DNA of 64,000 nucleotides from Candidatus Aminicenantes bacterium (GTDB taxonomy: Bacteria; Acidobacteriota; Aminicenantia; Aminicenantales; UBA4085), in the NCBI GenBank assembly GCA_963729855.1, contig CAVSPT010000005.1, positions 439,661 to 503,660 on the forward strand, in the 5' to 3' direction. Position numbers and translations under genes: made by a program. A model generated the notes under the pieces. That model was not told where the DNA came from, did no database searches, and saw only the letters and a program-made list of their open reading frames with translations. The stretch's first letter is position 1. Each line of letters begins with the position of its first letter. Below, piece by piece: positions 10,816 through 64,000 of this stretch.

Positions 10816-11160
10816 GATGAAGACCTCCTGGCGGGAAGGAACGAGAGGGATCGGAAAGAGGAGGTCAGGTCCGAGGGGGGGCGCGGAGGGAATGCGCGCT
10901 GCAGGCGTAAAGCCCAGGCCGGGCGGATGGAGCGGCCATGGCTGTCCGTATCGGGCCGGCGCCGATGAGAAAAGACAGGGACAGCAACAGAGGCCCGATC
11001 AGCAGAGGGAAAAACACCGCCAGCGGGATGAAGGCCAGGACAAAGAAGCCCCAGCCCGCAAGCGCCGGCCGGCGAAATTCGAGGACCATCGGTCGTCCGT
11101 TCATGATCACGCGGCTCGAGGAGAAGATAGGTTCCCGGCCCGTTGAAGTCAACCCGCCGT

Positions 11161-12159: not shown

Positions 12160-12305
12160 GGTCCTTCTCCTCAGGGCGGCCGCCCGTCTACTGTATATGA
12201 AAAGCGCCGCGGGCGGTAGCCGGGAAGGAGCCGGGAATCCGCGTTCGAGGAAGACGGCCGGCGGCCGGGAGGGGGTCCGCCGCGGACGCCCAAAAATAGG
12301 CCGCG

Positions 12306-18625: not shown

Positions 18626-18755
18626 GCCCTTCGAATCATAGCATGTTCAAGGAAGGGAAAAAATCCGGTCATTTACACCGCGCGAGGCGCTTTGGCATAA
18701 TAATCACCGATCCGTTTCCGGATCGAAGGTCTCCATCGGAGGGAAAGGAAAGACG

Positions 18756-34526: not shown

Positions 34527-34705
34527 GGGAGCTCCTTGAAAGGGATGCCGTCTGACCCTGCTTTTATATCAGAATCCGAATGGAATTTCTTCCTCCTCGA
34601 TGGAAAAGCCGATATAATCGGGTCGGCCCGTCCCGCCCGGCCCGGGAGCGCAACGCTTCCGGCGCCGGCCCGATGGAGTCTCAATCGGCGTCCGGGAGAT
34701 CGTCC

Positions 34706-46793: not shown

Positions 46794-46852
46794 GTTCGTG
46801 CGCGCAATTATACACGAATGGTCTTTCAAAATAAACGGAGAAAAGCCCGCCC

Positions 46853-47878
46853 TCATACCCCGGCCATGGCGCCGTGTGAGGACTGGAAAGCCCGCCAGCG
46901 CTTGATGCGCAGGACGGCGCGGAGGCACGAAAACAGGCAGGCGGCGGCGATGATGCCCAGGATCAAGGCCAGGCTCCAGTCCCTTATGGCGGCGAGCTTG
47001 GCCGGCCCGGCCGCCCCTCCGGTCATGGCCGCCCAGGAGGCGCGGATTCCCTCGGCATGCGCGCCGAGGGTCTGAACGATCATGATCAGCACCGCCGCGT
47101 CGATCACCGCCCGCGCGCCGACGCGCAGCCGAGTGAGATTCGGACGGATCAGATTGATCAGGGCCAGGACCGCGCCGGCGGCGATGAGGACGGCGATGGG
47201 GACGAAATAGCGCGACTGGAAATCAAGCCAGAGCGCCGAGGAGGGAAGATCCTTGAGGGCGCCGTCAAGGGACAGGACGATCGGGAAGTGGAACCTTCCC
47301 AGCCACCAGCCCAGGACGAGCAGGCTGGCGACGAGATCGGCGATGGAGGAGCTCCGGGGAGCCCTGATCATATCGCGGACGGCCGGCAGGCGGCGGGGAT
47401 TCCAATCCCCGCGGCCGGCGGATTGGCGCTGGAAGCGCTCCCCGACGGCGAATCCGAGGGTGATCATGGCGAACAGGGTCAGGGCCGTCGTCCAGAGATG
47501 TCCCAGCCCCTGGAACAGCAGGGCCCCGGAGTGGGCGGCCCGGTACGAAGGGACGAAGATCATGAGCCCGGCCCAAATCAGAAACCAGGGAACCAAATAG
47601 ATCCCGGCGGCCACTTTGAGGACGAATTCATAGATGGGATAAAGCTGGGGCCCGATGAGGTGCCGCTGGGGAAGGAAGCGTCCGGCCACGGTGAAGGGGC
47701 TCCCCCGCCGTTTGAGCAGGGCGGAGAGATCCTCCTCGTTTAAAACCCGGCCAAGCTCCTTCCCGCGCTCCTCGATCTGCAGGCGGATGTCTTCGGCAAG
47801 CTCGGCGATGACGTCGATTTTCTGGTCCTTGGGCAGCCAGAAACGGACGGCGTTCAGATAGCGTTCAACGAGATCCAT
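46853..47878 (-). CDS. PadR-associated membrane protein (HAAS/DUF1700-like putative sensor)
   Basis: N-terminal 'MDLVERYLNAVRFWLPKDQKIDVIAELAEDIRLQIEE' helix typical of PadR-partner proteins, followed by several TM helices. Overlaps padR by 14 nt. Confidence 0.6.
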   Translation of the reverse strand: MDLVERYLNAVRFWLPKDQKIDVIAELAEDIRLQIEERGKELGRVLNEEDLSALLKRRGSPFTVAGRFLPQRHLIGPQLYPIYEFVLKVAAGIYLVPWFLIWAGLMIFVPSYRAAHSGALLFQGLGHLWTTALTLFAMITLGFAVGERFQRQSAGRGDWNPRRLPAVRDMIRAPRSSSIADLVASLLVLGWWLGRFHFPIVLSLDGALKDLPSSALWLDFQSRYFVPIAVLIAAGAVLALINLIRPNLTRLRVGARAVIDAAVLIMIVQTLGAHAEGIRASWAAMTGGAAGPAKLAAIRDWSLALILGIIAAACLFSCLRAVLRIKRWRAFQSSHGAMAGV

Positions 47879-48212
47879 GGCGCGTCTCCTTCATGATATC
47901 GTTCAGGGAAGCCGTGATCGTCTCCCACTCCGCGGACAATTGCCTGAAGATCCGCTGTCCTTCGGCGGACAGGCGATAGAAGCGCTTGGGCCTCTTGTCC
48001 TCGTCCCGCCATTCGCTGACCAGCAGCCCCTGGCTTTCCAGCCGCCGCAGGAGCGGATACAGCGTCCCTTCATCGACGACCATTCCCATTTCGGCCAGGG
48101 CCTTGCGCAGGGTGTAGCCGTACTGTTCACTCCGAAGCTCGGCCAGGACCGCCAGCGGGACGCACCCGCGGCGAAGCTCGAGGCGTAGGTTTTCGAACTG
48201 ATCGTTGGTCAT
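47865..48212 (-). CDS. PadR-family transcriptional regulator
   Basis: Winged HTH 'CVPLAVLAELRSEQYGYTLRKALAEMGMVVDEGTLYPLLRRLESQGLL'. Confidence 0.85.
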   Translation of the reverse strand: MTNDQFENLRLELRRGCVPLAVLAELRSEQYGYTLRKALAEMGMVVDEGTLYPLLRRLESQGLLVSEWRDEDKRPKRFYRLSAEGQRIFRQLSAEWETITASLNDIMKETRHGSR

Positions 48213-48230
48213 GGCGGCGGCCTTTCCTTT

Positions 48231-48276
48231 TATACAGTGTCACGTATAGTGTATGTTACACAGTATAGACTGTCAA
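48231..48276. repeat. Cluster of short direct/inverted repeats (TATACAGTGT ... GTATAGTGTAT ... ACACAGTATAGACTGTC) immediately upstream of padR
   Basis: Read directly. AT-rich. Candidate PadR operator and boundary of the low-GC island. Confidence 0.35.
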
Positions 48277-48368
48277 GTCTTTTTTTCGATCCCCATCATC
48301 TCGAATAGCCGGGCGCGCGTTCGCTCCTGCGCTGCGAGAAATACGCCGAGCGGCAGCAAAAAAACCAT

Positions 48369-48396
48369 TTGACAATATCGCGCACTGTGTTATATT
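48369..48396 (+). promoter_or_regulatory. Strong sigma70-like promoter (TTGACA-16-TATATT) for gdhA
   Basis: Read directly. Followed by a roughly 190-nt leader before ATG 48590. Confidence 0.5.
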
Positions 48397-48523
48397 TTCG
48401 AGAAAATTGTGAATGGCTTTGTTAAGTTATACAGATGAAGCGAGAAGATTTCTCTCCGGGGAGAAATGACCGAGGGGCCGGAACCTAAAAAGTGGCGGGG
48501 ATGAAAGAAAGCAGGGCCCCTGA

Positions 48524-49942
<1,419 letters not shown>

Positions 49943-49970
49943 TTCATCAAGCGCGATCCCGTCGCAAAAA

Positions 49971-50002
49971 GGGTGCCCGTCGCGAGACGGGCACCCTTTT
50001 TC
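49971..50002 (+). terminator. Rho-independent terminator after gdhA
   Basis: gggtgcccgtc-gcga-gacgggcaccc perfect 11-bp stem followed by tttttc. An upstream A-run makes it potentially bidirectional. Confidence 0.75.
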
Positions 50003-50106
50003 ATTTCAGAATCGGTCTTCGCTTCATCATTGAGAAAGCACGCCGCTTCATACTCCGACGGCCGGCTCGGTCGGATGGCCGGCAGGCCCTGACCCGGTTC
50101 AGGCCC

Positions 50107-50136
50107 TTGACCACGGGCCGGAGCGGGAGCTAATAT
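50107..50136 (+). promoter_or_regulatory. Sigma70-like promoter candidate (TTGACC-18-TAATAT) for comDE-like genes
   Basis: Read directly. Confidence 0.3.
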
Positions 50137-50222
50137 TCTATTCTAAGATGACAGCGATGCCGAGGTTAAGGGCCGGTTCCTCATAGAGGGCAGAAAACCA
50201 AATTCATAGAGGCCGTTGGGTG

Positions 50223-50762
50223 ATGATTAGCGCCAGATCGGTTTTGGACGAACTGAAGGCTTGCCATGTGACGTTCTGTGTCGGTTTGGCGGAAACGGCA
50301 TTGGCCGCTCTGGCCGCCCTTCTCGAGAACGATCAGTCGGTGCGGTTCGTTCCCGTGACCCGGGAAGGGGAAGCATTTGCTCTGGCTTCCGGATTGTGGA
50401 TCGGCGGACAGAACGCGGTCATCTTGGTGCAAAATACAGGATTGCTGGAGAGCGGAGATGCGCTCCGCGGAACGGCTCAACGCATGCGGGTCCCGGTCCT
50501 TTGCCTGATCGCGTATCGCGGCCACTCGCATTTGCTCGGGCAAAAAAAGCATAACGGGTCTGAGCCGCGGAATCCCGACGAGTTCAGCCGTCCCGACTTG
50601 GATTCGGCGGCTCTCGTCACGGAGCCCACATTGAATGCCTGGGGCATTCCCTTTGAATTCCTGGACTCCGATGCCGATCTCCCGAAAATATCACGAGCTT
50701 TCGACCGCGCCCAAAGGGAATCTCGGCCGGTCGCCCTCCTGGTCACGAACACGATGGTTTAA
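50223..50762 (+). CDS. Sulfopyruvate/phosphonopyruvate decarboxylase alpha-subunit-like (TPP enzyme N-terminal pyrimidine-binding half)
   Basis: About 180 aa: 'HVTFCVGLAETALAALAALLENDQSVRFVPVTREGEAFALASGLWIGGQNAVILVQNTG' fits a TPP enzyme N-terminal domain. Partnered immediately with the beta half. Confidence 0.65.
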   Translation: MISARSVLDELKACHVTFCVGLAETALAALAALLENDQSVRFVPVTREGEAFALASGLWIGGQNAVILVQNTGLLESGDALRGTAQRMRVPVLCLIAYRGHSHLLGQKKHNGSEPRNPDEFSRPDLDSAALVTEPTLNAWGIPFEFLDSDADLPKISRAFDRAQRESRPVALLVTNTMV

Positions 50763-50780
50763 TGATTCCTGGCGGAGACG

Positions 50781-51371
50781 ATGCTAACCAAGGAACAGCT
50801 GCTTAAGCCCCTGGCCCAGCTCCGAAGCACGGCCGTTGTCGTGACCTGCATGAGCGTAACGCGCCCCTGGGGACGCTATTCGTCGAGCGAGCTGGATTTT
50901 GCCTCGGCTGACAGCGCCATGGGTCATACGGCCGATCTGGCTCTGGGGATCGCTCTGGCCCAGCCGCAGCGCAAGGTCATCTGCTTAAATGGCGATGGAA
51001 GCATGTTGATGACCTTGGGAACGCTGGCCACGGTCGTCGCCGCGCGAGCCACGAACTTCGCCCTCTTCATCGTCCAGAATGATTCTTACGAGCTGACCGG
51101 ACATCAGCCGATTCCGGCGGCGGGGCGCATTGATTTTGCCCGGCTGGCGCGAGGCGCGGGTTTCGAACACGTCTATGATTTTGAAAATGCGGATGATTAT
51201 GAAAGGCGATTGCCGGCCGTTCTTGCGGAGGAAGGACCGGTGTTTGCGGCGGTTCGAGTCGAAAAAGGCGCGGAAGGCCCCATCAGCCGAAGCGCAAAGG
51301 AACCGTCTCGGTACCTTCAAGTCTCGCTCGCTGAATCAGCCCATCGTCTCAGGAAGATGTTGATATCGTAG
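50781..51371 (+). CDS. Sulfopyruvate/phosphonopyruvate decarboxylase beta-subunit-like (TPP-binding C-terminal half)
   Basis: 'ICLNGDGSMLM' GDG-x24-N thiamine-diphosphate motif. GGAG ribosome-binding site. Gene starts 19 nt after the alpha stop. Confidence 0.65.
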   Translation: MLTKEQLLKPLAQLRSTAVVVTCMSVTRPWGRYSSSELDFASADSAMGHTADLALGIALAQPQRKVICLNGDGSMLMTLGTLATVVAARATNFALFIVQNDSYELTGHQPIPAAGRIDFARLARGAGFEHVYDFENADDYERRLPAVLAEEGPVFAAVRVEKGAEGPISRSAKEPSRYLQVSLAESAHRLRKMLIS

Positions 51372-51509
51372 CCAAGCCGGCGGACCGCCCCCGCTCATCG
51401 CGCCGCCCGCCGTATGAGGTTCAAATCCTGCGGCCGAAATTATCGAAAACGATCGAAAGCCGAAAAGACCAGATCAATCATCGGGCCCAGGTCAAATCCC
51501 GGCTCCAAG

Positions 51510-51539
51510 TTGACGGATTTTTGGATTTTCCCATATAAT
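51510..51539 (+). promoter_or_regulatory. Sigma70-like promoter (TTGACG-18-TATAAT) upstream of the Cys-rich response regulator
   Basis: Read directly. Perfect -10 hexamer. Confidence 0.5.
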
Positions 51540-51660
51540 GGACAGCCGGAATGAAGATCTACTGAATACGGTGGGGCATTCCGGGGGGATTTCTTATGTT
51601 GCGCGGAGAGAGCATATTCGATAAACAAAGGAAAGCAGGGAGATCGACGTCCATTCCATA

Positions 51661-52371
51661 ATGCCGTCGGAGCCAATCATCATGGAGAAAAAGATAGGAT
51701 CCTTTATCCAGGTCTATTGTCCGGAAATCATGGACATGATCAACCCGGGAGAATGGACGGATTGCCCTTATTATCGAGGCCAGAAGCTCGACATGTCGAA
51801 TACCGAGGAGGCGTTGAAGCAGATCTTCCGCTGCCATGTCCAATGCGACTGCAAGATTCAATATCAGTATTACGAGGAGGGGAAGCTGGTGAAGAAGGTT
51901 CTCGATTCCGTGGAGGACCAGGAAAGCCTCCGCCGGATCCTTCTTCTGGTGAGCAAACCGACCGAGAAGCCGAATAAAAAAACGAAAATCCTGATCGTTG
52001 ACGACGACGCGGATTTCCTCGAAATGCACTCCGTTGTCCTGAAAAACAAGGGATACGAAGTCATCACGGCCCCGAGTGCAAAAAAATGCGAGCAGGCCCT
52101 GGAGAAAGGCCGGCCCGACCTCGTGATCCTGGACGTCATGATGGAGCAGTTCGACGCCGGATTTGAACTGAGCAAGAAGATCAAGAAGAAGTATGACGGC
52201 CTGCCGGTGATGCTCCTCACGTCCATCGGGCAACAAACAGGGCTGGACTTCTCCTCCAACGCCGAGGTCTTAAGAACGACCGGCGCCGACGCTCTTCTCG
52301 ACAAGCCGGTCAGTCCCGAGGTGTTCATCGCCGAAATTGAGAGGTTGACCGCGCCCATGAAGAAGCGGTAA
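51661..52371 (+). CDS. Response regulator with N-terminal Cys-rich domain and C-terminal receiver (REC) domain
   Basis: C-terminal 'KILIVDDDADFLEMH...DLVILDVMM...KPV' REC with phospho-acceptor Asp. N-terminal about 90 aa with C20, C35, C58, H59, C62, C64 ('YCPE','DCPYY','RCHVQCDC'). Alternative ATG at 51682 has the better ribosome-binding site. Confidence 0.7.
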   Translation: MPSEPIIMEKKIGSFIQVYCPEIMDMINPGEWTDCPYYRGQKLDMSNTEEALKQIFRCHVQCDCKIQYQYYEEGKLVKKVLDSVEDQESLRRILLLVSKPTEKPNKKTKILIVDDDADFLEMHSVVLKNKGYEVITAPSAKKCEQALEKGRPDLVILDVMMEQFDAGFELSKKIKKKYDGLPVMLLTSIGQQTGLDFSSNAEVLRTTGADALLDKPVSPEVFIAEIERLTAPMKKR

Positions 52372-52387
52372 GAGACCCGCGGCTTCC

Positions 52388-54475
52388 ATGGACATCCTCA
52401 GCATCTCCAACGCCAAGTGCCGCAAGTGCTACCGGTGCGTACGGGAGTGCCCGACCAATGCCCTGAAAATCGACCAGGGGGTGGTCAAGAGAATCTGGAG
52501 CCGCTGCATTCTCTGCGGGCTCTGCTACCGGCACTGCCCCCACGCGGCCGTGAACGCCCATACCGGAATCAAGCGCGTCCTCGATCTGCTCGAGTCGGGG
52601 CAGAAAGTCGTCGCCTGCCTGGACCCCACTTTTCCGGCGGTCTTGGACAGGGGCACGCCGGGCCAGCTTGTGACCGCGTTGAAAAAACTCGGTTTTCACG
52701 AAGTCTGGGAGGCCGCGGTCGGGGGCGACTTGGTGGCCGAACCCTACCGTTCCTGGCTCGCCCAAAATAGGGAATCTAGCTGGATTTCTTCATTCTGCCC
52801 GTCGCTCGTCTTTTACATTCAAAAATTCGCCCCCTCTCTGAGCAGCCAGCTCGTGCCGATCGTTTCTCCGATGATTGCCTGCGGCCGAGCGGTTAAACAG
52901 CTCTTGGGTGCCGACACGAAAGTGGTTTTTATCGGTCCGTGCATCTCTCGAATCTGGGAGCGCATGGACCGGAGCGGAAGGGAAGCCATCGATTATGTAT
53001 TGGTCTATCGGGACATCACCAACACTCTCAGGGCGAGAGGAATCGACCGCGAAGAACAAGAACCGTCAGAATTTGACGGGCCCCGGAGCAGCCTGGGAAG
53101 GGTCCTGAGCTTTTCGGGGGGGATGAGCAAGTGCGCCGGGTTCGAGCAGGACCTCCTGAATCTGGACTATGTGGTTGAGGCCGGAGCCCCAGAAGCCATG
53201 CGGGCCTTGAAGCAGCTCCAGGAAGGAAAGATCCGCGCGCGGTTTCTCGACTTGCTGTTGTGCCGTGGCTGCATCAACGGTCCCGTAACGGACATGCAAA
53301 TCTCGGGTCCCAGTCGAAAGCAGATTGTCGTGGATTTCATTAAAGCCCAGGATCTGGTCGAGCCGGCGAAAAAAAAGGAAGGCCTCGGGGAGCCCTCTCA
53401 TTTGAATCTCACACGGAGCTTTCGACCCCATGATGCGTCCCTGCCGGATCCCACGGACGCGGAGGTCGAGGCCGTTCTGGCTCAACTCGGGAAATCCTAC
53501 CCCGACCAAAACCTGGACTGCGGGGCCTGCGGCTACAGCTCCTGCCGGGAGAAGGCCAAGGCCATCGTCCTGGGATTGGCTGAGATGGAAATGTGCCACC
53601 ATTTTCTTTTGGAACGCCTCCAGAGCCTCTATTCGCAGCTGGAAAAGTCTCACCGCCAGCTCAAGAGCTCCCATGAGCAATTGGAGGGGGCCCAACGGCA
53701 GTTGATCCAGACGGAGAAAATGGCCTCCCTCGGACAGTTGGCGGCGGGCGTGGCCCATGAGCTGAACAACCCCATCGGCACGATCATGATGTTCAGCCGG
53801 ATGATCCAGAAGGAAATGGCCCAGGATCAAAAATGGCAGAAGGATATCACCATCGTCGTCCAGGAAGCGGACCGGGCGGCTAAGATCATCAAGGACCTGC
53901 TGAGCTTCGCCAGGGAAACGAAGGTCAAGCCAGGGCAGGTGAGCATCAATCCGGTCATCCAAGAAACCCTATCGCTTCTTGTCAAGCAATCTCTCTTTCA
54001 CAATATCGAAGTGGTTGTCCTCTTGGACCCGACGCTGCCGACGACGTTTGCCGATCCGGACCTCCTGAAGCAGGTATTTTTCAACATCATCCTGAACGGC
54101 GCCCAGGCTATGGAAGGGAAAGGGACGTTGACCATCCAAACTCAGAACATCGATAACGGCAGGACCATCGAAATCCGGATCCAAGACACCGGCAAGGGAA
54201 TCCCCGAGAAACACATCCCCAAGCTCTTCGACCCGTTCTTCACGACCAAGGAGAAGGGAACGGGGCTGGGCCTGGCCCTTGTTTACAGCATCGTTTCCAA
54301 ACACAAGGGATCGATCGCCGTAGAAAGCGAGCTGGAGAAAGGCGCCACGTTCCTCATCCGGCTGCCCATCCTGAGCCAGGAAGACTGGCTGAAGCGTGAA
54401 GGCCAGGTCGAAGACTTAGGGACCGGGCTCGAAGGAAAATACAATGAAAGCCCAAGCAAAGATCTTATTGGTTGA
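52388..54475 (+). CDS. Histidine kinase with N-terminal [FeFe]-hydrogenase-like (HydS-type sensory) domain: 2x[4Fe-4S] ferredoxin + H-domain-like + Cx2Cx4Cx16C + HisKA + HATPase_c
   Basis: 'CRKCYRCVRECP', 'CILCGLCYRHCP'. H-cluster motif analogues 'SSFCPS' (TSCCP), 'GPCISRIWE' (MPCxxKxxE), 'LLLCRGCINGP' (MACxGGCxxG). 'CGACGYSSC-x16-C'. H-box 'AHELNNPIG'. HATPase 'DTGKGIPEKH...GTGLGLALV'. Confidence 0.8.
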   Translation: MDILSISNAKCRKCYRCVRECPTNALKIDQGVVKRIWSRCILCGLCYRHCPHAAVNAHTGIKRVLDLLESGQKVVACLDPTFPAVLDRGTPGQLVTALKKLGFHEVWEAAVGGDLVAEPYRSWLAQNRESSWISSFCPSLVFYIQKFAPSLSSQLVPIVSPMIACGRAVKQLLGADTKVVFIGPCISRIWERMDRSGREAIDYVLVYRDITNTLRARGIDREEQEPSEFDGPRSSLGRVLSFSGGMSKCAGFEQDLLNLDYVVEAGAPEAMRALKQLQEGKIRARFLDLLLCRGCINGPVTDMQISGPSRKQIVVDFIKAQDLVEPAKKKEGLGEPSHLNLTRSFRPHDASLPDPTDAEVEAVLAQLGKSYPDQNLDCGACGYSSCREKAKAIVLGLAEMEMCHHFLLERLQSLYSQLEKSHRQLKSSHEQLEGAQRQLIQTEKMASLGQLAAGVAHELNNPIGTIMMFSRMIQKEMAQDQKWQKDITIVVQEADRAAKIIKDLLSFARETKVKPGQVSINPVIQETLSLLVKQSLFHNIEVVVLLDPTLPTTFADPDLLKQVFFNIILNGAQAMEGKGTLTIQTQNIDNGRTIEIRIQDTGKGIPEKHIPKLFDPFFTTKEKGTGLGLALVYSIVSKHKGSIAVESELEKGATFLIRLPILSQEDWLKREGQVEDLGTGLEGKYNESPSKDLIG

Positions 54476-54845
54476 TGACGACCCCGATTTTCTGGAGATG
54501 CACAAGGCCGTTCTCCAGAGCCGGGGCTATGAGGTTTTCACCGCCGCGAGCGCCCAGGAAGGCCTGGGACGCGTCCGGGCGGAGATGCCGGACCTGATCA
54601 TCCTGGACCTCATGATGGAGAAGCATGACGCGGGATTTTCCTTCAGCAAGGCGGTCAAGACCGACCCGCTGTTCAGGACGATCCCCATCCTCATGGTGAC
54701 GTCGGTGGCCGAGGCCACCGGCTATCGCTTTTCGCTCGAGGAAGACGGGTATTGGATGAAAACGGACGATTTCCTGAATAAGCCCGTTCCGCCTGAAGTC
54801 CTCCTGGAAGCCGTCGATAAACTCCTGCAGAAGAAAAAAGAATGA
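54444..54845 (+). CDS. Stand-alone receiver-domain response regulator (CheY-like)
   Basis: 'ILLVDDDPDFLEMH...DLIILDLMM...KPV'. Overlaps the kinase stop. Confidence 0.8.
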   Translation: MKAQAKILLVDDDPDFLEMHKAVLQSRGYEVFTAASAQEGLGRVRAEMPDLIILDLMMEKHDAGFSFSKAVKTDPLFRTIPILMVTSVAEATGYRFSLEEDGYWMKTDDFLNKPVPPEVLLEAVDKLLQKKKE

Positions 54846-54846
54846 A

Positions 54847-56325
54847 ATGAATACACAAGGCCGAATTCTCGTCGTCGACGATGAAATGGGAATCCGCGAA
54901 GGCTGCCGGCGCGTCCTGGCGGAGGAAGGGTACGACATCGACCTGGCCGGAGACGGAAATGCCGGCCTGCAGAGGGCCCGGGAGAAATCCTATGACCTCG
55001 TCCTGGTCGACCTCATGATGCCGGGCATCGGCGGGCTGGACATGATCAATAAGATCCACGAGATCGATCCCGAGATCATCATGGTCGTGATCACGGGATT
55101 TGCCACCATCGAAACGGCGGTCGAGGCGACGAAGAGGGGGGCCTACGATTACCTTCCGAAACCCTTCACTCCGGAAACGCTGGCCGTCCTGGTCAAGAGG
55201 GGGCTCGAGAAGCGGGAGCTCCGATTGGAGGCCCAGAGGCTTCAGCAGGAACGGGAGCAGAGGCTCCTGGAGCTGGCCGGTGAAAAGAGCCGCCTCCGGA
55301 GCATCATCGGCTGCATGGCCGACGGCGTTCTGGTCACGAACCTCGAGGGTCACCTGGTCCTCTGGAACGCCTCCGCCGTGAACATGCTGAAACTCCGGGG
55401 AACGGACGAACCCGGGAAACCTCCGGGCCATTACATCAAGAATCAGCCTTTGATCGAATCCCTGGCAAAAATCATGAACTCGAAGGACGAAAGTGTCTCG
55501 ATGATCAGCCAGGAGATCCCCTCGGATGACGCGAAATCGGTCCTGATGGCCCAGATGGCCCCCGTCCGGGACGACCAGGGGAAGCTTCTCGGAGCCGTGA
55601 CGGTCCTGAGGGACATCACGAAGCTCAAGGAGATCGATAAGATCAAATCCCAGTTCGTCTCCATGGTGGCGCATGAGCTTCGCTCGCCCTTGGCGGCCAT
55701 CGAAGGCTGGCTGGGCCTCCTGCTGTCCGGCGAAGTCGAAGGGGACAAAGAACAAAAACGACAATGGCTGCGGCGGGCGAAAGAGCGGGCCCACTCTCTC
55801 CTGGCTCTCGTCCAGGACTTGCTGGAGATCAACAAGATCGAGGCCGGGAAGGTCGCCCTGAAGATGGAGTCCCTCCAGATGACCGACATCCTGGGCAAGA
55901 TCATCGACTTTCTCAAGCCCGAAGCGGACAAGAAAAATGTCTCCATCCAAATGAGATCTCCCGCGCCGATTCCGCTCCTCCGGGCCGACGTTCAGGACAT
56001 GGAAAAGCTCTTCACCAACCTGATCAGCAATGCCATCAAATACAACGTCGAGAAGGGTTCGATCACGATCGAAACGTCTTTGGATGCGAACTACGTCGGG
56101 ATTCACGTCCACGATACCGGGATCGGCATATCCCGGGACGACCTTCCGCGGATTTTCGACGATTTCTTCCGGGCCGAAAACAGCAAAACGGCTAAGATCA
56201 GCGGAACAGGACTGGGGTTGACGATCGCCAAGAAAATCGTGGACTCCCACTTCGGGCATATCGAAGTGAAGAGCGAGCCGGATAAGGGAAGCACCTTCTC
56301 CGTCTACCTGCCTTACCGGACATGA
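54847..56325 (+). CDS. Hybrid sensor: N-terminal receiver + PAS + HisKA + HATPase_c histidine kinase
   Basis: 'ILVVDDEMGIREG...DLVLVDLMMPG', PAS-like 'IGCMADGVLVTNLEGHLVLWN', 'VAHELRSPLAAI', 'GTGLGLTIAKKIV'. Confidence 0.8.
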   Translation: MNTQGRILVVDDEMGIREGCRRVLAEEGYDIDLAGDGNAGLQRAREKSYDLVLVDLMMPGIGGLDMINKIHEIDPEIIMVVITGFATIETAVEATKRGAYDYLPKPFTPETLAVLVKRGLEKRELRLEAQRLQQEREQRLLELAGEKSRLRSIIGCMADGVLVTNLEGHLVLWNASAVNMLKLRGTDEPGKPPGHYIKNQPLIESLAKIMNSKDESVSMISQEIPSDDAKSVLMAQMAPVRDDQGKLLGAVTVLRDITKLKEIDKIKSQFVSMVAHELRSPLAAIEGWLGLLLSGEVEGDKEQKRQWLRRAKERAHSLLALVQDLLEINKIEAGKVALKMESLQMTDILGKIIDFLKPEADKKNVSIQMRSPAPIPLLRADVQDMEKLFTNLISNAIKYNVEKGSITIETSLDANYVGIHVHDTGIGISRDDLPRIFDDFFRAENSKTAKISGTGLGLTIAKKIVDSHFGHIEVKSEPDKGSTFSVYLPYRT

Positions 56326-56347
56326 AAGAAGAGCAAAGAGAGCCGAG

Positions 56348-58612
56348 ATGAGTCTAAGCCGAACGCATCAACCCAACGAAATCCTCAGGAAGGAGCAGCT
56401 GGCTCCGGCGATCACGCTGTTCGAAGTCTATGCTCCGCTCGTCGCCCGAACCGTCCGGGCCGGCCAGTTTGTCGTCGTTCGGGCCGACGACTATGCGGAA
56501 CGGATTCCGCTCACGGTCGCCGACCGCAGCCTCGAAAACCAATCCATCACCCTGATCGTCCAAGTCGTCGGCCTCTCGACCAGGAAGATGGACACGCTCA
56601 AAGCCGGGGATGCGTTCCTCGACGTCGTCGGGCCCCTGGGGCAGCCGACGGAGATCAAGAAGGCCGGGACCGTGGTCTGTATCGGGGGAGGCGTCGGCGT
56701 CGCGCCCGTCTATCCCATCACCAAAGCTTTCAGAGCGGCGGGAAGCCGCATTCTGGCCATCATCGGCGCTAAGAACAAAGAGATGATCATCCTGGAAAAC
56801 GAGATGCGGGCCGTGAGCGACGAGCTTTACATCACGACGGACGACGGCACGGCCGGCCGCCGGGGGTTCGTCTCGGACGAACTCCAAAGGCTGATCACGG
56901 ACAAAGTGCCGATCGACCTGGTCATCGCCATCGGGCCCGGGATCATGATGAAAGTCATATCCGACATCACCAGGAAACACGGGATCCCGACGATCATCAG
57001 CCTGAACTCGCTGATGGTGGACGGGACCGGCATGTGCGGCAGCTGCCGGATCACCGTGGGGAACGAGACGAAGTTTGTCTGTGTCGACGGGCCCGAGTTC
57101 GACGCCCACCAGGTGGATTTCCAGGAGCTCCTCAAGAGGTCGGAAATGTACAAGCGAGAGGAGCACCGGGCCATGTGGGATCATGCCTGCCGGCTCCTGG
57201 CCGCCGAGAAGGCGCTCGGCAAGGCCAAACGTCGGGAGCCCATGCCCAAACAGGACCCCAAGCTCCGGGTTCAAAATTTCAACGAGGTCGCCCTGGGCTA
57301 CACCAAGGAGCAGGCCATTCGTGAAGCCTCGCGGTGCTTGAGTTGTAAAAAGTCGCCCTGCGTGGCCGGATGCCCGGTCGACATCGATATCCCGGGCTTC
57401 ATCGAACTCGTCCGGAAGGGCGACCTCATCGCGGCCAGTCATAAGATCAAAGAGAAGAACAGCCTCCCCGCCATCTGCGGACGGGTCTGCCCCCAGGAAG
57501 AGCAATGCGAGGTCGCCTGCGTCCTGTCCAAAAAAGGGCAGCCCATCGCCATCGGTCGGCTGGAACGGTACGTGGCCGATTATGAATTCCAGCAGGGGGA
57601 CGTCCGGATGCCGAAAAATCTGAGCCCGACGGGGAAAAAGGTCGCCGTCATCGGGGCCGGGCCGGCCGGTTTGTCGGCGGCCAGCGAACTTGCCAAAATG
57701 GGGCACAGCGTCATCGTCTTCGAGGCCCTCCACAAGCCGGGCGGCGTTCTCGTTTACGGGATTCCCGAGTTCCGTCTTCCCAAGTGGATCGTCCAGCGCG
57801 AATGCGAATACATCGGCAGGCTGGGGGCCGAAATCCGGGTGAGCCAGGTCGCCGGAAAATCCTTCACCATCGACGACCTTTTGAGCAACGGCTATGATGC
57901 CGTCTTCATCGGGACCGGGGCGGGCCTGCCGTACTTCATGAAAATCCCCGGGGAGAACCTGAACGGGGTGTACTCGGCCAACGAGTTCCTGTCCCGGGTG
58001 AACCTCATGAAGGCCTATCTTTTCCCGGAATTCCAGACCCCCGTCCATTATGGGCAGAAGATCGCCGTCGTGGGAGGCGGGAACGTGGCCATGGATTCCG
58101 CCCGGACCTCGCTCCGCTTGGGAGCCGAAAAAGTCTACCTGATCTACCGCCGGGCGAGAGAACAAATGCCGGCCCGCGAGGAGGAGATCGAGAACGCTTT
58201 CGAGGAAGGCGTCGAACCGCGCCTGCTGACCAATCCCATTCGGATCCTGGGAAACGAAAAAGGCTGGGTGAAGGGGATCGAATGCATCCAGATGGAGCTC
58301 GGAGAAGCGGATGGATCAGGCCGGAGACGGCCAATTCCCAAAAAGGGCTCTGAGCACATTATTGATGTCGACATGGTGATCATGGCCATCGGCCAGGGCC
58401 CCAATCCCCTCTTGACGTCGACGACCGCCGGCTTGGCGCTGACAAAGACGGGGAACATCATTGCCGACGAAACGACGGGCAAGACCTCGAAGAAAGGAGT
58501 GTTCGCCGGCGGCGACATCGTCACCGGCGCGGCCACGGTCATCCTGGCCATGGGGGCGGGCAAAAAGGCGGCCCAATCGATCGACGTCTATTTAAGGACT
58601 GGAGAGTGGTGA
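56348..58612 (+). CDS. Fused NfnA-NfnB-like flavoprotein: PyrK/SudB-like FAD + [2Fe-2S] domain fused to GltD/SudA-like 2x[4Fe-4S] FAD/NAD(P)H oxidoreductase
   Basis: N-terminal half 'GGGVGVAPV', 'CGSCRI...C.DGPEF'. C-terminal half 'CLSCKKSPCVAGCP', 'CGRVCPQEEQCEVAC', 'VAVIGAGPAGLSAA', 'GVFAGGDIVTG'. Confidence 0.8.
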   Translation: MSLSRTHQPNEILRKEQLAPAITLFEVYAPLVARTVRAGQFVVVRADDYAERIPLTVADRSLENQSITLIVQVVGLSTRKMDTLKAGDAFLDVVGPLGQPTEIKKAGTVVCIGGGVGVAPVYPITKAFRAAGSRILAIIGAKNKEMIILENEMRAVSDELYITTDDGTAGRRGFVSDELQRLITDKVPIDLVIAIGPGIMMKVISDITRKHGIPTIISLNSLMVDGTGMCGSCRITVGNETKFVCVDGPEFDAHQVDFQELLKRSEMYKREEHRAMWDHACRLLAAEKALGKAKRREPMPKQDPKLRVQNFNEVALGYTKEQAIREASRCLSCKKSPCVAGCPVDIDIPGFIELVRKGDLIAASHKIKEKNSLPAICGRVCPQEEQCEVACVLSKKGQPIAIGRLERYVADYEFQQGDVRMPKNLSPTGKKVAVIGAGPAGLSAASELAKMGHSVIVFEALHKPGGVLVYGIPEFRLPKWIVQRECEYIGRLGAEIRVSQVAGKSFTIDDLLSNGYDAVFIGTGAGLPYFMKIPGENLNGVYSANEFLSRVNLMKAYLFPEFQTPVHYGQKIAVVGGGNVAMDSARTSLRLGAEKVYLIYRRAREQMPAREEEIENAFEEGVEPRLLTNPIRILGNEKGWVKGIECIQMELGEADGSGRRRPIPKKGSEHIIDVDMVIMAIGQGPNPLLTSTTAGLALTKTGNIIADETTGKTSKKGVFAGGDIVTGAATVILAMGAGKKAAQSIDVYLRTGEW

Positions 58613-58944
58613 GCCCCCTGTTGGCACAACGTCGTCTCCGTCAACCGCCCGGCGTCTGGCTTTCAGCCGCCAGAGCAAACTGTTCAAAGACGCGCGCCCG
58701 GGATGTCTAAAGCGACTTCAATCGGCTGAGCCGGGGCCTGCGCCGGCTCATGGCCGGCAGCCGCAAATTCGGCCTGTCCTCCATCACCCGCGACGACATC
58801 AGCGGCCTCCCCTGCGTCCTCGACGTCGACAAGGACGAGGTGGAAAAGATCCCCAAGGGCCGAGGACGCGGGATCCGACCGACGGAAAAGGGTGCTTTTC
58901 GGGCGCCGCGGGGGCTTGTGGTAAAATAGTTACAAGGACCGACG

Positions 58945-59886
58945 ATGTTCTCAAGACCGCGGCTTGCCGTTGCCGTCCTTCTCTTGGGCCTGGCCGTCGC
59001 CGCGCGCCCGGCCGCGGCCCAGGAAAAAAGCGGGGAACTCACCCACCAGATCTCCGTGCGCGCGATCTCCCTCGCCGTCACCGTCCAGGACAGGTCCGGG
59101 CGGTACGTCAACGACCTGGGCCGGGAGGATTTCACGGTCCTCGAGAACGGCCAGAAGAAGGAGATCACCTATTTCAAATACGATTTCGAGGCCCCCCTGA
59201 GCCTGGCCGTCCTCCTCGACGTCAGCGGAAGCATGGCCCTCCAGGACAAGCTCAAGGACTGCCGGGAGGCTCTGAAGGCTTTGATCACCGGACGTCTCGG
59301 TCCGCGCGACGAGGTCGCGCTCCTCATCTTCGCCGACGGGCAGGTCGAGGTCGCGGCGCCGTTCTCGACCGATAAGACCCGCTTCCTGGCCGTTTTGGAC
59401 AGGACCGAGGCCTTCGGGCAGACGGCCCTGAACGACGCCGTGACCGCATCGTCGGAATTCGCCAACCGGGGGCATAACGAGAAGAGGACCCTCCTCCTGC
59501 TGACGGACGGAATCGAGAACGACAGCCGGACGACCCCGGACCAGGCCCTCCAGATCGCCCGGCGCGTGGACGTCCCCATCTACACGGTCGGATATAAAAT
59601 CCCCCTGAGCGAACGGCTCCTCCTGGAGCATAAGCGGCGCGCGGGGACGACGCCGGCCGGAATCATCGACGATTTGCAGAAGTTCTCCCGGACCACGGGC
59701 GGGAAAGCGTTCCTCTCGAATTCCCCGCCGGAGCTGAAGGGGGCGCTGGACGAGATCCGGCGCGAGGTGAGCCACCAATACCTTTTGGGGTATACTTCCT
59801 ATAAGGATCCGGGGGGCGAGTATAGAGAAATCAGCGTCCTGACCTCCAACAAGGGATATCGAGTCAGGACGCGCCAAGGATATTGA
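58945..59886 (+). CDS. Secreted von Willebrand factor A (VWA) domain protein
   Basis: MIDAS 'LLDVSGSM', signal peptide, AAGGA ribosome-binding site. Confidence 0.75.
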   Translation: MFSRPRLAVAVLLLGLAVAARPAAAQEKSGELTHQISVRAISLAVTVQDRSGRYVNDLGREDFTVLENGQKKEITYFKYDFEAPLSLAVLLDVSGSMALQDKLKDCREALKALITGRLGPRDEVALLIFADGQVEVAAPFSTDKTRFLAVLDRTEAFGQTALNDAVTASSEFANRGHNEKRTLLLLTDGIENDSRTTPDQALQIARRVDVPIYTVGYKIPLSERLLLEHKRRAGTTPAGIIDDLQKFSRTTGGKAFLSNSPPELKGALDEIRREVSHQYLLGYTSYKDPGGEYREISVLTSNKGYRVRTRQGY

Positions 59887-60610: not shown

Positions 60611-63394
60611 TCAAGTTTCTACGCCGCACCTCTTGCCGGGGTCGGACAGGAAGCCCAGGCCGATCTCGCTGTCGGCATCGATAACGACGCACATCTCACA
60701 GCCGCCGCAGGCCGCGGGCACGTCGATGACCCTCAGGACGCCGGCCAAGTGCTCGTACTCGGGCAGGAGGCCGGGCAAAGAGTTCGGGGACTGGAGGAAG
60801 AAATCCCGGGCGAAAATAATCCCCTCCTCGTCCGGGTAGAGGGCCAGGTAATAGATCCGGGACTCGACCAGGTCCTGGAAGAAATGCGTCCCGAAGGACA
60901 GGTCGGGGACGTAATTGCCGACCTTGCGGGCGATCTCGATCAGCATGGCCGAGTTGTTGATGTCCGAATAGGTGACGTTGACGCCCAGCTTGATGTCCCC
61001 CCGGCTCCCCCACCGGCCCGGGCCCATGAGGACGAAGGAGCGGCGGGGCAGCATGGCGTTGAGCCGGCTGACCGCTTCTCCGATGGCGACCATGTCGCCG
61101 TGCGAGGCCACGGCCGCGTATTCGTCGGGGTCGATATAGACGATGGTCTTGATCCCCCCGACCCGGGCATTGGTCAGGAATTTGTTGGCCGAGAAGAGCT
61201 TGCGTTTTTCCGGGATCCAGCTGGGGACGACGACCGGCACTTCATCGCCCAGGCGGCTCTGGGGGCGGCACTGGAGGATGTGGAGCATGGTCCCGTCATG
61301 GGCGAACTCGACGTCCATGGGGATGCCGAAAGCCTCCTGCAGGACGCGCATGATCTCGCGCATCTGCTTGAGGAAGGGGGTATTTTCGATCAGCCCGGCG
61401 AAGTTGACGACCAGGACGTCGCGGTCAAGCCGGCTCATGGCCCGGCTGGCTTTACGAACCGTGCTCCCGTCGTAGACGGAGAAGAGGCGGTCCCAAAGAG
61501 GAAATCCCTCCCCGACGTCCTGCAGGATGTCCTCGATCGGGTGGGTTTCGAAACGGCGGGTCTCGATGTTGATGACGTCGATGCTCTTCTGGGAGTAATG
61601 GAGGATCTGCTCGGGGGTGGCATTGACGCGGATTCCCGGCTGGCCGGGGCTGACGAGCATGGGATAGTCGTTGCTCAGGCGGTCGACGGCCCGCGTGCCC
61701 AGGCCGGTCACCAGGCGCAGGACGCCGTCCTCGCGCTTGATGCGAGGCGACCAGCGGAATTCGTTGTTTCCGAAGGCCACCCCGGCGAAGGCCGGAAAGA
61801 AATACTTCCCCACCCTTTTCCCGACGACGCGCTGAATGAGGACGCCCATCTCTTCGTAATAGTCGAGCAGGCCGCGTTCGGACCGGTACTGGATGGCGTC
61901 GGGGTTGAAAATGGAGGCGTAGACCTCGGCCACGGCGTCGCCCAGGGCGGCCAGCCGCTCCTCCTTGGTCCCGACATTGGCCAGGAAAAGGCTGCGGTAC
62001 TTCCCGGAAAAGGCCGAGCCGCGGCTGTCCTCGAGCAGGCTCGAGGAGCGGACGATGAGCGGCCCCTCGCCGGCGTCCTCCAGGATGAGCTTGAGCTGGA
62101 CCATCATCTCCGGGGAGAAGAAGGACTGCTTGCAGACCTGTTCGAGATAGGGGTAGTTGTGGCGGATCTCCTCGATGGGCGAGAATTTGAAGCTCTGCAA
62201 ATCCTCGAGGAAATTGTAATGGATAAAGTCCATCAGCCCGTCCGAAGTGACGAACCAGGATTCGGGCACACGGAACTCCCCGATGACCGGATCACCCAAC
62301 GCTTTCTTCCTCAGGATATGCTCGCCCAGGATCATGCCCGCCGACTTCCCCCCCAGCCGGCCGGTTCCCTGGCCGGGGCCCGTGACCCGGGAAAGGACGC
62401 GGTGGAAATCGTGGACAGTCATGTGATCGCGGGCAATGCGGATGAACTGGAGCCGGTCGCTGAGGAAACGGCGGATCAGAGCGATACGGGCCTGAAGATC
62501 GTCCGATTGGGACAGGGCCTGTTCGTCCTCGCGCGTCGAGCGGCAGAAACGGTTGACGATCTCCTTGATCTCGAGCAGGCTGATCTCCCGTTTCTCCATG
62601 GCCACCATGAAGAAATTGAGCTTGTCCTGGCGGGCCCACTGCTTGATCAAGGCGGTCAGGTCGCGGTCGGTCAAGGCCAGGGAGGCGATCCAAAGGGCCT
62701 CCTCAAAGACCTTCTCCAGTGAAGCCACGCTATGCTTGGGCAAAGGCTGGTTTTCGTCACGGCCGGCCGTCAGGTCGCCGCCGTATAATTCCGGGGAGAA
62801 GTGATAGAGAAGGCCCTGCACGCCCGGCACGCCCTGCCAGTGCAGGTGGTTCATAAGCCGCCGCAGGATGCGCTTATAGAGCAGGGGGTCGGTTTCGCGA
62901 AGCAGGTCAAGAATGACCTCCCAATCGGCCTTTCGTTTGCCCGGGGCCTCGACACGGACGTTGGAGCCGTAAGCCGGAGGGACGCCTTCCCAATCCTCGA
63001 TGAGCCGCCCCAGTCGGTTGGCGATGAGCTCAATGAGCTTCTTCTCCTCGAGCGTAAAGGGGTCCTCGCGCCGGGGCGAAGCGTTCTCGAAATAGCAGAC
63101 TTCCAGAGTGCCGACCGTGACGCCGCGCGTCCGCAGCGGAACGCGCTGGATCCATTTGGTCTCGACGAACCCGGGGGAGAAAAAAACGGCCTGGCGATAC
63201 TTGATCCGGGCCCGGCACAGGTCCGGATACTGCCAGCCCGAGGGAATGGTATCGACGATTTTCTGGAGGATTTTCTCCGAGGACAGCCCCGGGGTCCCGA
63301 GGAGGGCGACGATCGCCTGAAGGCACTCCAGTTCCTTGACCCGCTCGCGCAACGCGCCTCCCGGAAATTCGGCCTGCGTCCGGTCTTGGCTCAT
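60611..63394 (-). CDS. Large protein with central PEP/pyruvate-binding (PPDK_N / PEP-synthase N-terminal-like) domain, no recognisable phospho-His swivel motif
   Basis: 'LIVRSSSLLEDSRGSAFSGKYRSLFLANV' matches the PPDK_N core. I could not find a GG(R/K)TSHAAI-type motif. ATG at 63394 after GGGAGG. Confidence 0.6.
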   Translation of the reverse strand: MSQDRTQAEFPGGALRERVKELECLQAIVALLGTPGLSSEKILQKIVDTIPSGWQYPDLCRARIKYRQAVFFSPGFVETKWIQRVPLRTRGVTVGTLEVCYFENASPRREDPFTLEEKKLIELIANRLGRLIEDWEGVPPAYGSNVRVEAPGKRKADWEVILDLLRETDPLLYKRILRRLMNHLHWQGVPGVQGLLYHFSPELYGGDLTAGRDENQPLPKHSVASLEKVFEEALWIASLALTDRDLTALIKQWARQDKLNFFMVAMEKREISLLEIKEIVNRFCRSTREDEQALSQSDDLQARIALIRRFLSDRLQFIRIARDHMTVHDFHRVLSRVTGPGQGTGRLGGKSAGMILGEHILRKKALGDPVIGEFRVPESWFVTSDGLMDFIHYNFLEDLQSFKFSPIEEIRHNYPYLEQVCKQSFFSPEMMVQLKLILEDAGEGPLIVRSSSLLEDSRGSAFSGKYRSLFLANVGTKEERLAALGDAVAEVYASIFNPDAIQYRSERGLLDYYEEMGVLIQRVVGKRVGKYFFPAFAGVAFGNNEFRWSPRIKREDGVLRLVTGLGTRAVDRLSNDYPMLVSPGQPGIRVNATPEQILHYSQKSIDVINIETRRFETHPIEDILQDVGEGFPLWDRLFSVYDGSTVRKASRAMSRLDRDVLVVNFAGLIENTPFLKQMREIMRVLQEAFGIPMDVEFAHDGTMLHILQCRPQSRLGDEVPVVVPSWIPEKRKLFSANKFLTNARVGGIKTIVYIDPDEYAAVASHGDMVAIGEAVSRLNAMLPRRSFVLMGPGRWGSRGDIKLGVNVTYSDINNSAMLIEIARKVGNYVPDLSFGTHFFQDLVESRIYYLALYPDEEGIIFARDFFLQSPNSLPGLLPEYEHLAGVLRVIDVPAACGGCEMCVVIDADSEIGLGFLSDPGKRCGVET

Positions 63395-63589: not shown

Positions 63590-64000
<411 letters not shown>

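Follow-up and report, generated by a model that had tools for sequence, protein, structure and literature searches.

A low-GC tract in the chromosome of a Candidatus Aminicenantes bacterium is likely a composite recombinant region with two histories

Introduction

A tract of deviant base composition in a bacterial chromosome invites comparison with two kinds of described systems, the classical genomic island on the one hand and recombination-mediated allelic or cassette replacement, including homology-facilitated illegitimate recombination, on the other. In this study we analyze such a tract in a stretch of 64,000 nucleotides (nt) from a Candidatus Aminicenantes bacterium (GenBank assembly GCA_963729855.1, contig CAVSPT010000005.1, positions 439,661 to 503,660 of the forward strand). 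We call the whole stretch the window and count all positions from its first base. Between padR and a gene for a VWA-domain protein the window holds about 10.3 kb (48289–58627) of low guanine-plus-cytosine (GC) content, comprising a gene for an NADP-specific glutamate dehydrogenase (gdhA), the genes of a split thiamine pyrophosphate (TPP) enzyme and a five-gene operon that encodes a sensory cascade and a fused Nfn-type oxidoreductase. We show that the tract is a mosaic of two segments, A (gdhA and the TPP genes) and C (the operon), and we consider it likely that it is a composite recombinant region with two histories that replaced a native segment of typical GC content.

Like a classical genomic island, the tract deviates in GC without interruption over ∼10 kb, is lacking at the corresponding site of close relatives and contains metabolic and regulatory genes of the accessory kind. 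However, it has no tRNA target, integrase, insertion sequence (IS) or flanking repeats, and at least two histories are combined in it; the donors would belong to the same order, and resident genes would have been replaced rather than joined by a clean insertion. With cassette replacement the tract shares breakpoints that lie between genes at transcription-unit boundaries, a deletion with a pseudogene scar left behind, and gdhA and TPP genes that appear to stem, as an allele, from a related lineage where they adjoin the same operon. It differs in that the operon, as an anchor between donor and recipient, is only ∼75% identical at the nucleotide level, a low value by the standards of known homologous recombination.

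The proteins of the tract have described counterparts as well. Nfn uses NADH and reduced ferredoxin to generate NADPH, its fold also serves as the small subunit of glutamate synthase, and NADP-dependent glutamate dehydrogenase (GDH) uses NADPH. To our knowledge no member of the kinase architecture in which a [FeFe]-hydrogenase-like H-domain is joined to HisKA and HATPase domains has been characterised. Among the [FeFe]-hydrogenases, HydDB lists a class ‘C1 histidine kinase-linked (putative)’ with an undetermined role (PMC5037454), and in the putative sensory enzyme HydS the proton-relay residue Cys299 is lost and Met353 and Met497 are replaced (PMC8163306).

Results

The window as a whole has a GC content of 63.3%. 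A sliding profile shows one deep trough, from ∼48.0 to 57 kb, where GC lies at 0.51–0.60 as compared to 0.60–0.69 elsewhere. With the edges of the tract defined by homology (48289–58627), GC is 0.574 inside and 0.644 in the remainder of the window; the minimum among non-overlapping control windows of the same size is 0.631 (standard deviation 0.009), and 1-kb bins inside and outside the tract differ clearly (Mann–Whitney p = 1.6e-6). The best fit of a two-breakpoint segmentation is 48180–56400. At third codon positions (GC3) the eight tract genes range from 0.66 to 0.81 with a mean of 0.733, against 0.842 ± 0.043 for the 43 other genes (p = 6.6e-6), and G/C-ending codons are rarer in the tract for 17 of the 18 degenerate amino-acid families. 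A first-pass annotation, made from the sequence by a model, had proposed a low-GC island of about 10 kb here, and the GC trough, the GC3 values and the control windows all agree with it in this respect: GC and codon usage both deviate. Several of its details have to be corrected. The flanks, put at ∼68% GC, measure 0.62–0.66; the codons, described as A/T-ending, are mostly G/C-ending and merely less so than elsewhere; and strong AGGAG ribosome-binding sites are found in front of gdhA only, i.e. in one of the eight tract genes as compared to 12 of the 43 others. The composition-corrected tetranucleotide signature of the tract, which had been named as a further check, is no outlier (r = 0.934, inside the control-segment range of 0.879 to ∼0.97), though GC and GC3 deviate.

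The deviation is uneven along the tract. GC3 is 0.67 in gdhA (z = −4.0) and 0.66–0.67 in the TPP genes (z ∼−4), whereas z is only −0.7 to −2.2 for the genes of the operon. Here the GC deficit amounts to −0.04, −0.06 and −0.06 at codon positions 1, 2 and 3, respectively, which places ∼60% of it at positions 1 and 2.

Both edges could be located by comparison with related loci, which are given here by L numbers. On the left side L021, with a nuo operon 88% identical to that of the window at the nucleotide level, aligns through padR (47865–48212, minus strand) and its promoter/operator region (48213–48288) up to position 48288. The padR gene belongs to the native flank; it encodes 115 amino acids (Pfam PadR, E = 5e-18) with 88.7% amino acid identity to its L021 counterpart. 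The promoter/operator region contains minus-strand promoter-like sites and the AT-rich repeats TATACAGTGT and GTATAGTGTA, which had been taken as the start of the island; the region is also present in L021, which has no island, and is therefore flank DNA. Homology to L011, the closest relative of the gdhA cassette, begins at 48359, and the junction interval in between (48289–48358) is homologous to neither of the two. An independently assembled Logan contig (L007) spans this left junction with 100% identity over 48036–50633. Past the breakpoint L021 continues with genes for a blaI-like protein, a NuoE-like and a NuoF-like protein, a 2Fe-2S/4Fe-4S ferredoxin and an FMN-glutamate synthase, all at a GC3 of 0.82–0.90.

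On the right side the gene for the VWA-domain protein (58945–59886, plus strand; Pfam VWA_2) is native again, with 93% nucleotide identity to L020 and a synonymous divergence (dS) of 0.18. In L020 this gene is preceded by an esterase gene and the intact 3′ end of an open reading frame (ORF) whose homologues are annotated as FMN-binding glutamate synthase. The L020 ORF is 89% identical to residues 435–489 of the L021 synthase and only ∼70% to the synthase of the L018 type. The window carries a decayed 3′ remnant of this gene (58694–58873, plus strand) that is 76% identical in nucleotides to the intact ORF end of L020; 30 nt are deleted, the reading frame is interrupted by a stop and the original stop codon is gone. 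A tblastn search with the L021 glutamate synthase matches 58696–58779. The esterase gene that separates the synthase ORF from the VWA gene in L020 is missing from the window. The remnant is the scar of a replaced native glutamate-synthase module. The imported DNA is bounded by 48289–48358 on the left and by 58627–58693 on the right. Ends of segments fall together with strong promoter-like sites (48369, 51510) and with the terminator hairpin (49966–50001). The comparison of synteny with related genomes that had been suggested earlier speaks clearly: the tract is absent from this site in L021 and L020, and other genes are found there.

Segment A (48359–51407) is made up of two cassettes on the plus strand. 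The first one, the gdhA cassette (48359–50009), contains a predicted promoter (TTGACA-16-TATATT, 48369–48396), a leader of ∼190 nt, the coding sequence (48590–49942) and the terminator, a perfect 16-bp hairpin. The gene product is an NADP-specific glutamate dehydrogenase (NCBIfam NF006929, 765.6 bits versus a cut-off of 536). Just 5′ of the ribosome-binding site lies a palindrome, TTTCAATAT-N4-ATATTGGAA (48536–48557). Palindrome and promoter are kept across four lineages (window, L011, L042 and L043) whose leaders are otherwise divergent, and we regard the palindrome as a possible operator of a nitrogen or redox regulator; Rfam searches of the leader at permissive thresholds gave no match. The second cassette (50106–51407) encodes the split TPP enzyme, with a Pfam TPP_enzyme_N subunit (50220–50762) and a TPP_enzyme_C subunit (50781–51371) of ∼180 and 196 amino acids.

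L011 represents L008–L017, an Aminicenantales population that includes GCA_050015275.1. In these loci the gene order from gdhA to Nfn is that of the window, but the block is sited between pst and hypAB genes. Nucleotide identity between window and L011 is 91% for the gdhA cassette and 86% for the TPP cassette but only 74.7% over 51679–58593. Accordingly, dS is 0.30 for gdhA (96.4% amino acid identity) and 0.36–0.39 for the two TPP genes, as compared to 1.24–1.55 for the five genes of the operon. The whole block is also found at the pst-hypAB site in another two lineages, L042 and L043. Their gdhA is as far from that of L011 (dS 1.2–1.4) as from that of the window (dS 1.0–1.4). For gdhA and both TPP genes window and L011 are mutual closest relatives; for the five operon genes, L011 clusters with L042 and L043 (79–92% amino acid identity) and the window is the outgroup (65–80%, dS 0.85–1.6). 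GC3 of the gdhA and TPP genes is 0.62–0.70 in window and L011 versus 0.78–0.87 in L042 and L043. This incongruence was measured inside single contigs and hence is independent of binning. It indicates that segment A is a laterally exchanged low-GC allele set, as judged from gene sequences, because the closest allele resides in a distant lineage whose operon genes have diverged so much further. Overall, the best relatives of the gdhA product come from Aminicenantales (89–96% amino acid identity), Zixibacteria (84–86%) and Omnitrophota (79–81%). The exact gdhA sequence is on record solely in a Logan contig of 2.6 kb and in the source contig.

The L011 locus is conspicuous in itself. Across its entire gdhA-to-Nfn block (10001–20544), as well as in the other loci of L008–L017, GC3 is 0.62–0.73 versus 0.81–0.92 in the flanks. 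The L011 block may represent a second, independent compositional anomaly, possibly an allelic replacement from a relative with lower GC.

Segment C, the five-gene sensor/Nfn operon (51498–58627, plus strand), has a predicted promoter of its own (TTGACG-18-TATAAT, 51510–51539) and points to other relatives. A stretch of 7134 bp that matches the operon with the same ends and different flanks is found in L018 and L019, at 92.9% nucleotide identity. The copies in L028/L029 show ∼89–95% amino acid identity (∼93% in the aligned nucleotide coding sequence for L029) and that in L030 ∼85–92% (88% in nucleotides). In these loci the operon is sited between a methyltransferase gene and a cluster for glutamate synthase, ferredoxin and a NuoF-like protein. 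Between window and L018 the dS of the operon is 0.14–0.22, and the core genes (nuo, Nramp) of L021, L023 and L024 are 88–91% identical to those of the window with dS 0.11–0.64. At greater distance, window and L011 operon share 70–80% amino acid identity with a nonsynonymous divergence (dN) of 0.13–0.19; the nuo genes of L026, which served as core baseline for this distant lineage, share 55–80% with dN 0.15–0.40.

The composition of the operon is stable, with a GC3 of 0.78 in the window, L018, L029 and L030. When synonymous changes on the window branch were polarised, we counted 67 from G/C to A/T (S>W) and 36 in the opposite direction (W>S) in the operon, and 57 and 17, respectively, in nuo. 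The per-site S>W/W>S rate ratio is ∼1.9–2.0 in both, and no amelioration, in the sense of an excess of AT-to-GC synonymous change over nuo, was found in the operon. All full-length loci that we recovered keep the order of the five genes, even at 61% identity and in genomes of 49% GC. Operon homologues with at least 61% identity are all located on acidobacterial-type contigs, and in species-representative genomes homologues of the kinase were found in metagenome-assembled genomes (MAGs) of Aminicenantes and Terriglobales. The operon thus behaves as a long-resident gene set of the window's lineage that diverges in step with the nuo core. The relatedness of the individual genes, proposed earlier as a comparison of island and flanks, gives a divided answer: gdhA and the TPP genes are nearest to L011, the operon to the L018 type and the core genes to the L021/L023 type. 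What had been read as one island is a mosaic of segments A and C with different histories.

A search for features of genetic mobility was negative throughout, as had been noted for the edges at first sight (no integrase, tRNA or direct repeat). ARAGORN found no tRNA or tmRNA gene in the window, and Rfam gave no match over the whole window at gathering thresholds. Among the ORFs of at least 100 amino acids in the 64-kb window there is no gene for an integrase, a transposase, an IS or any mobility function; the other annotated ORFs of this size either encode ordinary housekeeping functions or match no Pfam family. Around 48.3 and 58.6 kb no bracketing repeats were found, only short matches at chance level. 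An imperfect inverted match of 14 nt (48285–48298 and 58269–58282) was considered as a terminal repeat and rejected as a chance match with its right arm inside the Nfn gene. Plasmid searches returned generic matches to single genes with at most ∼66% identity, which leaves a plasmid origin unsupported. A pair of IS3-family transposase genes was seen in L018 (90–1228), 1.7 kb 5′ of the sensor operon, and is not present in the otherwise collinear L019; no other mobile element was seen close to a copy of the operon.

The operon encodes four signalling proteins and an oxidoreductase, all on the plus strand. The first gene (51661–52371) specifies a response regulator of 236 amino acids with a Cys/His-rich N-terminal domain and a C-terminal receiver domain (Pfam Response_reg, residues 110–226). 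In an alignment of 11 homologues the N-terminal residues C20, C35, C58, H59 and C62 are invariant, and the ∼100 N-terminal residues (51661–51990) have no Pfam match; this part of the protein probably binds metal and serves as an output or input domain. In a single-sequence AlphaFold model pLDDT stayed under 50 across it. The second gene (52388–54475) encodes a [FeFe]-hydrogenase-like sensor histidine kinase of 695 amino acids (Pfam Fe_hyd_lg_C 1e-40, FeS, HisKA, HATPase_c). From its N-terminus it comprises two CxxCxxCxxxC motifs at residues 11 and 40 (with a match to Pfam FeS, PF04060), the H-domain, a Cx2Cx4Cx16C motif at residues 378–403, HisKA with H457 as the histidine, and HATPase_c. Aligned to T. 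maritima HydA and to CpI, the H-domain shows the motifs SSFCP, GPC and LLLCRGC, and C137, C185, C292 and C295 align with the H-cluster ligands C300, C355, C499 and C503 of CpI. These motifs and the four cysteine ligands are invariant in 11 homologues. The third gene (54444–54845) encodes a single-domain response regulator of 133 amino acids (Pfam Response_reg 2e-19) and the fourth (54847–56325) a hybrid REC-PAS-HisKA-HATPase histidine kinase of 492 amino acids, assigned by Pfam, with 91.5% amino acid identity to L018. The last gene (56348–58612) encodes a fused NfnA-NfnB-type oxidoreductase of 754 amino acids.

The 695-residue kinase shares with the putative sensory [FeFe]-hydrogenases, T. maritima HydS of group C and T. 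mathranii HydS of group D (PMC5037454, PMC8163306), the two N-terminal [4Fe-4S] motifs and the Cx2Cx4Cx16C motif; it likewise keeps the four cluster-ligating cysteines and lacks the Cys299 relay. As in TmHydS, Met353 is replaced by Gly (GPC), and as in TamHydS, Met497 is replaced by Leu (LLLC). It differs from these proteins in having Phe at position 299 (SSFCP) and in that HisKA and HATPase domains are fused in place of PAS. Group C (M2f) enzymes have a PAS domain fused to the H-domain; Pfam finds none in this kinase, where the next domains are HisKA and HATPase, and the operon has its PAS domain in the other, REC-PAS kinase. A further difference is that the window kinase sits in a four-protein phosphorelay together with a fused NfnAB. 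Genes for the HydE, HydF and HydG maturases are missing from the 64-kb window. A second set of genes of this kind is seen in L011 (5803–9491), where a Fe_hyd_lg_C protein of 425 amino acids is flanked by HATPase_c_2, PHP and HATPase genes; a similar HATPase-PHP pair occurs 3′ of the NuoE/F-like cluster in L018. Together these genes would make up another putative set of regulators linked to a hydrogenase.

The Nfn protein shows full-length homology to both subunits of NfnAB, the NADH-dependent ferredoxin:NADP+ oxidoreductase, as known from T. maritima (4YLF) and P. furiosus (NfnI, 5JCA): residues 10–273 match T. maritima NfnA, the subunit with FAD/NAD and 2Fe-2S (4ylf_A, 2e-77), and residues 294–754 match NfnB, the subunit with 2x[4Fe-4S] and FAD/NADPH (4ylf_B, 5e-184). 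In contrast to these, the subunits of the predicted enzyme are fused into one polypeptide of 754 residues. It scores 607.6 with TIGR01316 (cut-off 471.75), and 1077.6 bits with NF009414, a model of the fused form with a cut-off of 1103. A look-up of the exact kinase and Nfn sequences returned no record. For the split TPP enzyme, the best family and PDB matches are to the alpha/beta enzymes ComDE (sulfopyruvate decarboxylase) and phosphonopyruvate decarboxylase. However, all scores are far below the curated cut-offs (70.3 versus 147.95 for TIGR03845, 97.2 versus 221.5 for TIGR03846, 60–103 versus 312.5 for TIGR03297), and there are no coenzyme M or phosphonate pathway genes nearby. The first-pass annotation was broadly right in calling padR, gdhA, a sensory cascade and an Nfn-like gene. 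Its ComDE-like decarboxylase stands as a split TPP enzyme and falls short of the ComDE and phosphonopyruvate decarboxylase assignments, and in its sensory cascade the [FeFe]-hydrogenase-like sensor domain of the first kinase had been overlooked.

The window is part of a contig of 1.38 Mb, and the named relatives of its NuoD are Candidatus Aminicenantales/Aminicenantes. The left flank, all on the minus strand, runs from nuoN to nuoA, followed by a gene for a 341-residue protein without assigned family and padR. Two other differences from the 88%-identical L021 were noted in this part. At 33252–37000 beta-lactamase and alpha-galactosidase genes of the window stand in the place of an L021 ORF of 271 amino acids, and at 46794–46852 the window lacks a DUF3863/3864 gene that L021 has between the gene for the 341-residue protein and nuoA. 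From these indels, the nuo neighbourhood is generally fluid. The right flank consists of genes for the VWA protein, an OmpA-like protein, a PPDK_N-like protein of 927 amino acids (60611–63394, minus strand) and the 3′ half of a second GDH (63590–64000, minus strand). The latter has a GC3 of 0.92 over 63590–63973, which confirms the earlier remark that gdhA in the tract is accompanied by a second, high-GC GDH at the 3′ end of the window. The PPDK_N-like/GDH pair is located 2 kb from the tract. In L002, a locus of a Terriglobales MAG, the same pair (46% and 65% amino acid identity) directly adjoins the sensor operon, in company with a split TPP enzyme, which suggests an old functional neighbourhood.

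Discussion

We consider it likely that the tract arose as a composite recombinant region. About 10.3 kb (48289–58627) would have replaced the segment with blaI-like, NuoE-like, NuoF-like, ferredoxin and FMN-glutamate synthase genes, and the esterase gene beyond, that, by comparison with close relatives, lay between padR and the VWA gene. The gdhA and split TPP cassettes, each from promoter to terminator, would have been acquired by lateral exchange within the Aminicenantales from a source of lower GC, and their alleles would share a recent ancestor with the copies of a distantly related Aminicenantales lineage. The five-gene operon would belong to the window's own clade and would have been relocated; its GC deficit would mostly reflect protein composition together with a stable, slightly lower GC3. 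As mechanism we propose recombination, homologous or illegitimate, at intergenic boundaries of transcription units, because no mobile-element machinery is present. The alternative offered by the first-pass annotation, either an old acquisition or a compositional domain, fits one part each: the gdhA and TPP genes appear imported and the operon resident, and neither description covers the whole tract.

The best of the other explanations is that the tract is a purely intrinsic compositional domain of native, vertically inherited genes in which no transfer took place. The operon gives this idea some support. A good part of its GC deficit (∼60%) is located at codon positions 1 and 2, its GC3 is the same in four lineages, its substitution bias equals that of nuo, and the tetranucleotide signature of the tract is normal. 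However, segment A does not fit. The sister lineages L042 and L043 carry the orthologous gdhA-to-Nfn block at a GC3 of 0.78–0.90 (0.78–0.87 for gdhA and TPP genes, 0.78–0.90 for the operon), which refutes, for segment A, the idea that low GC is intrinsic to the block. In addition, the phylogeny of the gdhA and TPP genes is incongruent with that of the operon, relatives have other genes at the site, and a pseudogene scar was left behind. We regard a purely intrinsic origin of the tract as improbable.

Still less probable, to a degree that we would call it very unlikely, is a single island that arrived in one event from a distant donor of lower GC and is slowly ameliorating. The contiguous GC trough, the absence of the tract from this site in relatives and the rather close gdhA relatives in Zixibacteria and Omnitrophota would all be expected from such an event. 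On the other hand, the two parts of the tract have different nearest relatives and differ 4-fold in dS to the same contig, the operon homologues found at 61% identity or more all lie on acidobacterial-type contigs with their gene order unchanged, and the nearest gdhA alleles are those of Aminicenantales. The tetranucleotide signature in the native range and the lack of an AT-to-GC synonymous excess over nuo do not speak for slow amelioration either. An assembly chimera, in which reads of co-occurring Aminicenantales strains were joined, is hardly to be believed: although single peat and sediment metagenomes do contain related populations side by side and all breakpoints lie in intergenic DNA, the left junction recurs without a mismatch in L007, the source contig reaches 1.38 Mb, and a mutated remnant with a stop, a 30-nt deletion and 76% identity at the right edge would not result from co-assembly of intact strains.

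Several points weigh against a composite recombinant origin. The native order padR-glutamate synthase-VWA was joined from two metagenome contigs of different samples, L021 and L020, which overlap by 54 residues at 89% identity. Unlike the left junction, those at ∼51.45 kb and ∼58.63 kb are not backed by a second assembly. Our view is limited to the 64-kb window, and the replaced module may persist elsewhere in the genome. The genome-wide GC3 background was estimated from the 43 window genes only, and at 0.75–0.81 the GC3 of the operon is still below that of most neighbouring genes. The dS estimates that come near saturation are rough, and so is the polarisation of synonymous changes by parsimony in GC-rich sequence on which the S>W and W>S counts depend. 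The comparison of operon and nuo divergence assumes that L011 and L026 are one population, with the assembly ERZ27250177 shared by L013 and L026 as sole support. The low GC3 across the entire L011 block (0.62–0.73) is left without an explanation, and an older transfer of the operon is conceivable.

As to function, the block would pair a probable H2- or redox-sensing phosphorelay with an NADPH-generating Nfn and an NADPH-using GDH. If this functional reading holds, an ammonium assimilation module of the glutamate-synthase type would have been swapped for one of the GDH type. The gene neighbourhoods are partly in line with this. The operon adjoins gdhA in the window, L011, L042 and L043, another GDH gene in L002 and L033, and a glutamate synthase gene in L018, L019 and L029; all in all, a glutamate-forming enzyme adjoins the operon in four of ∼9 types of arrangement. 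We also considered whether the operon always lies beside genes of glutamate metabolism; this is ruled out by L004, L038, L031 and L030, in which the neighbours are glycogen-related, peptidase or metallo-beta-lactamase genes. A physiological coupling would thus rest on gene content and on neighbourhoods that recur without being universal, which counts against it. It might be possible that the operon is an H2- or ferredoxin-redox-sensing phosphorelay that tunes how much NADPH is supplied and by which route, GDH or glutamate synthase, ammonium is assimilated in anaerobic Acidobacteriota, and that the exchange of the glutamate-synthase module for gdhA around this sensor was adaptive. At present we regard this idea as a reasonable hypothesis of low probability.

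In conclusion, a GC trough without mobility genes could be separated into an exchanged cassette and a relocated resident operon. As such it is an ordinary but well-resolved example, and it cautions against reading every low-GC tract as one foreign island. The part most worth following up is the operon with the uncharacterised hydrogenase-like kinase. If the kinase senses H2 or redox state, these loci would offer a concrete test system for the presumed signalling role of sensory [FeFe]-hydrogenases, and if the proposed tuning of NADPH supply and ammonium assimilation is true, it would be the first physiological role for a [FeFe]-hydrogenase of the group-C1-type, ‘histidine kinase-linked’ kind.

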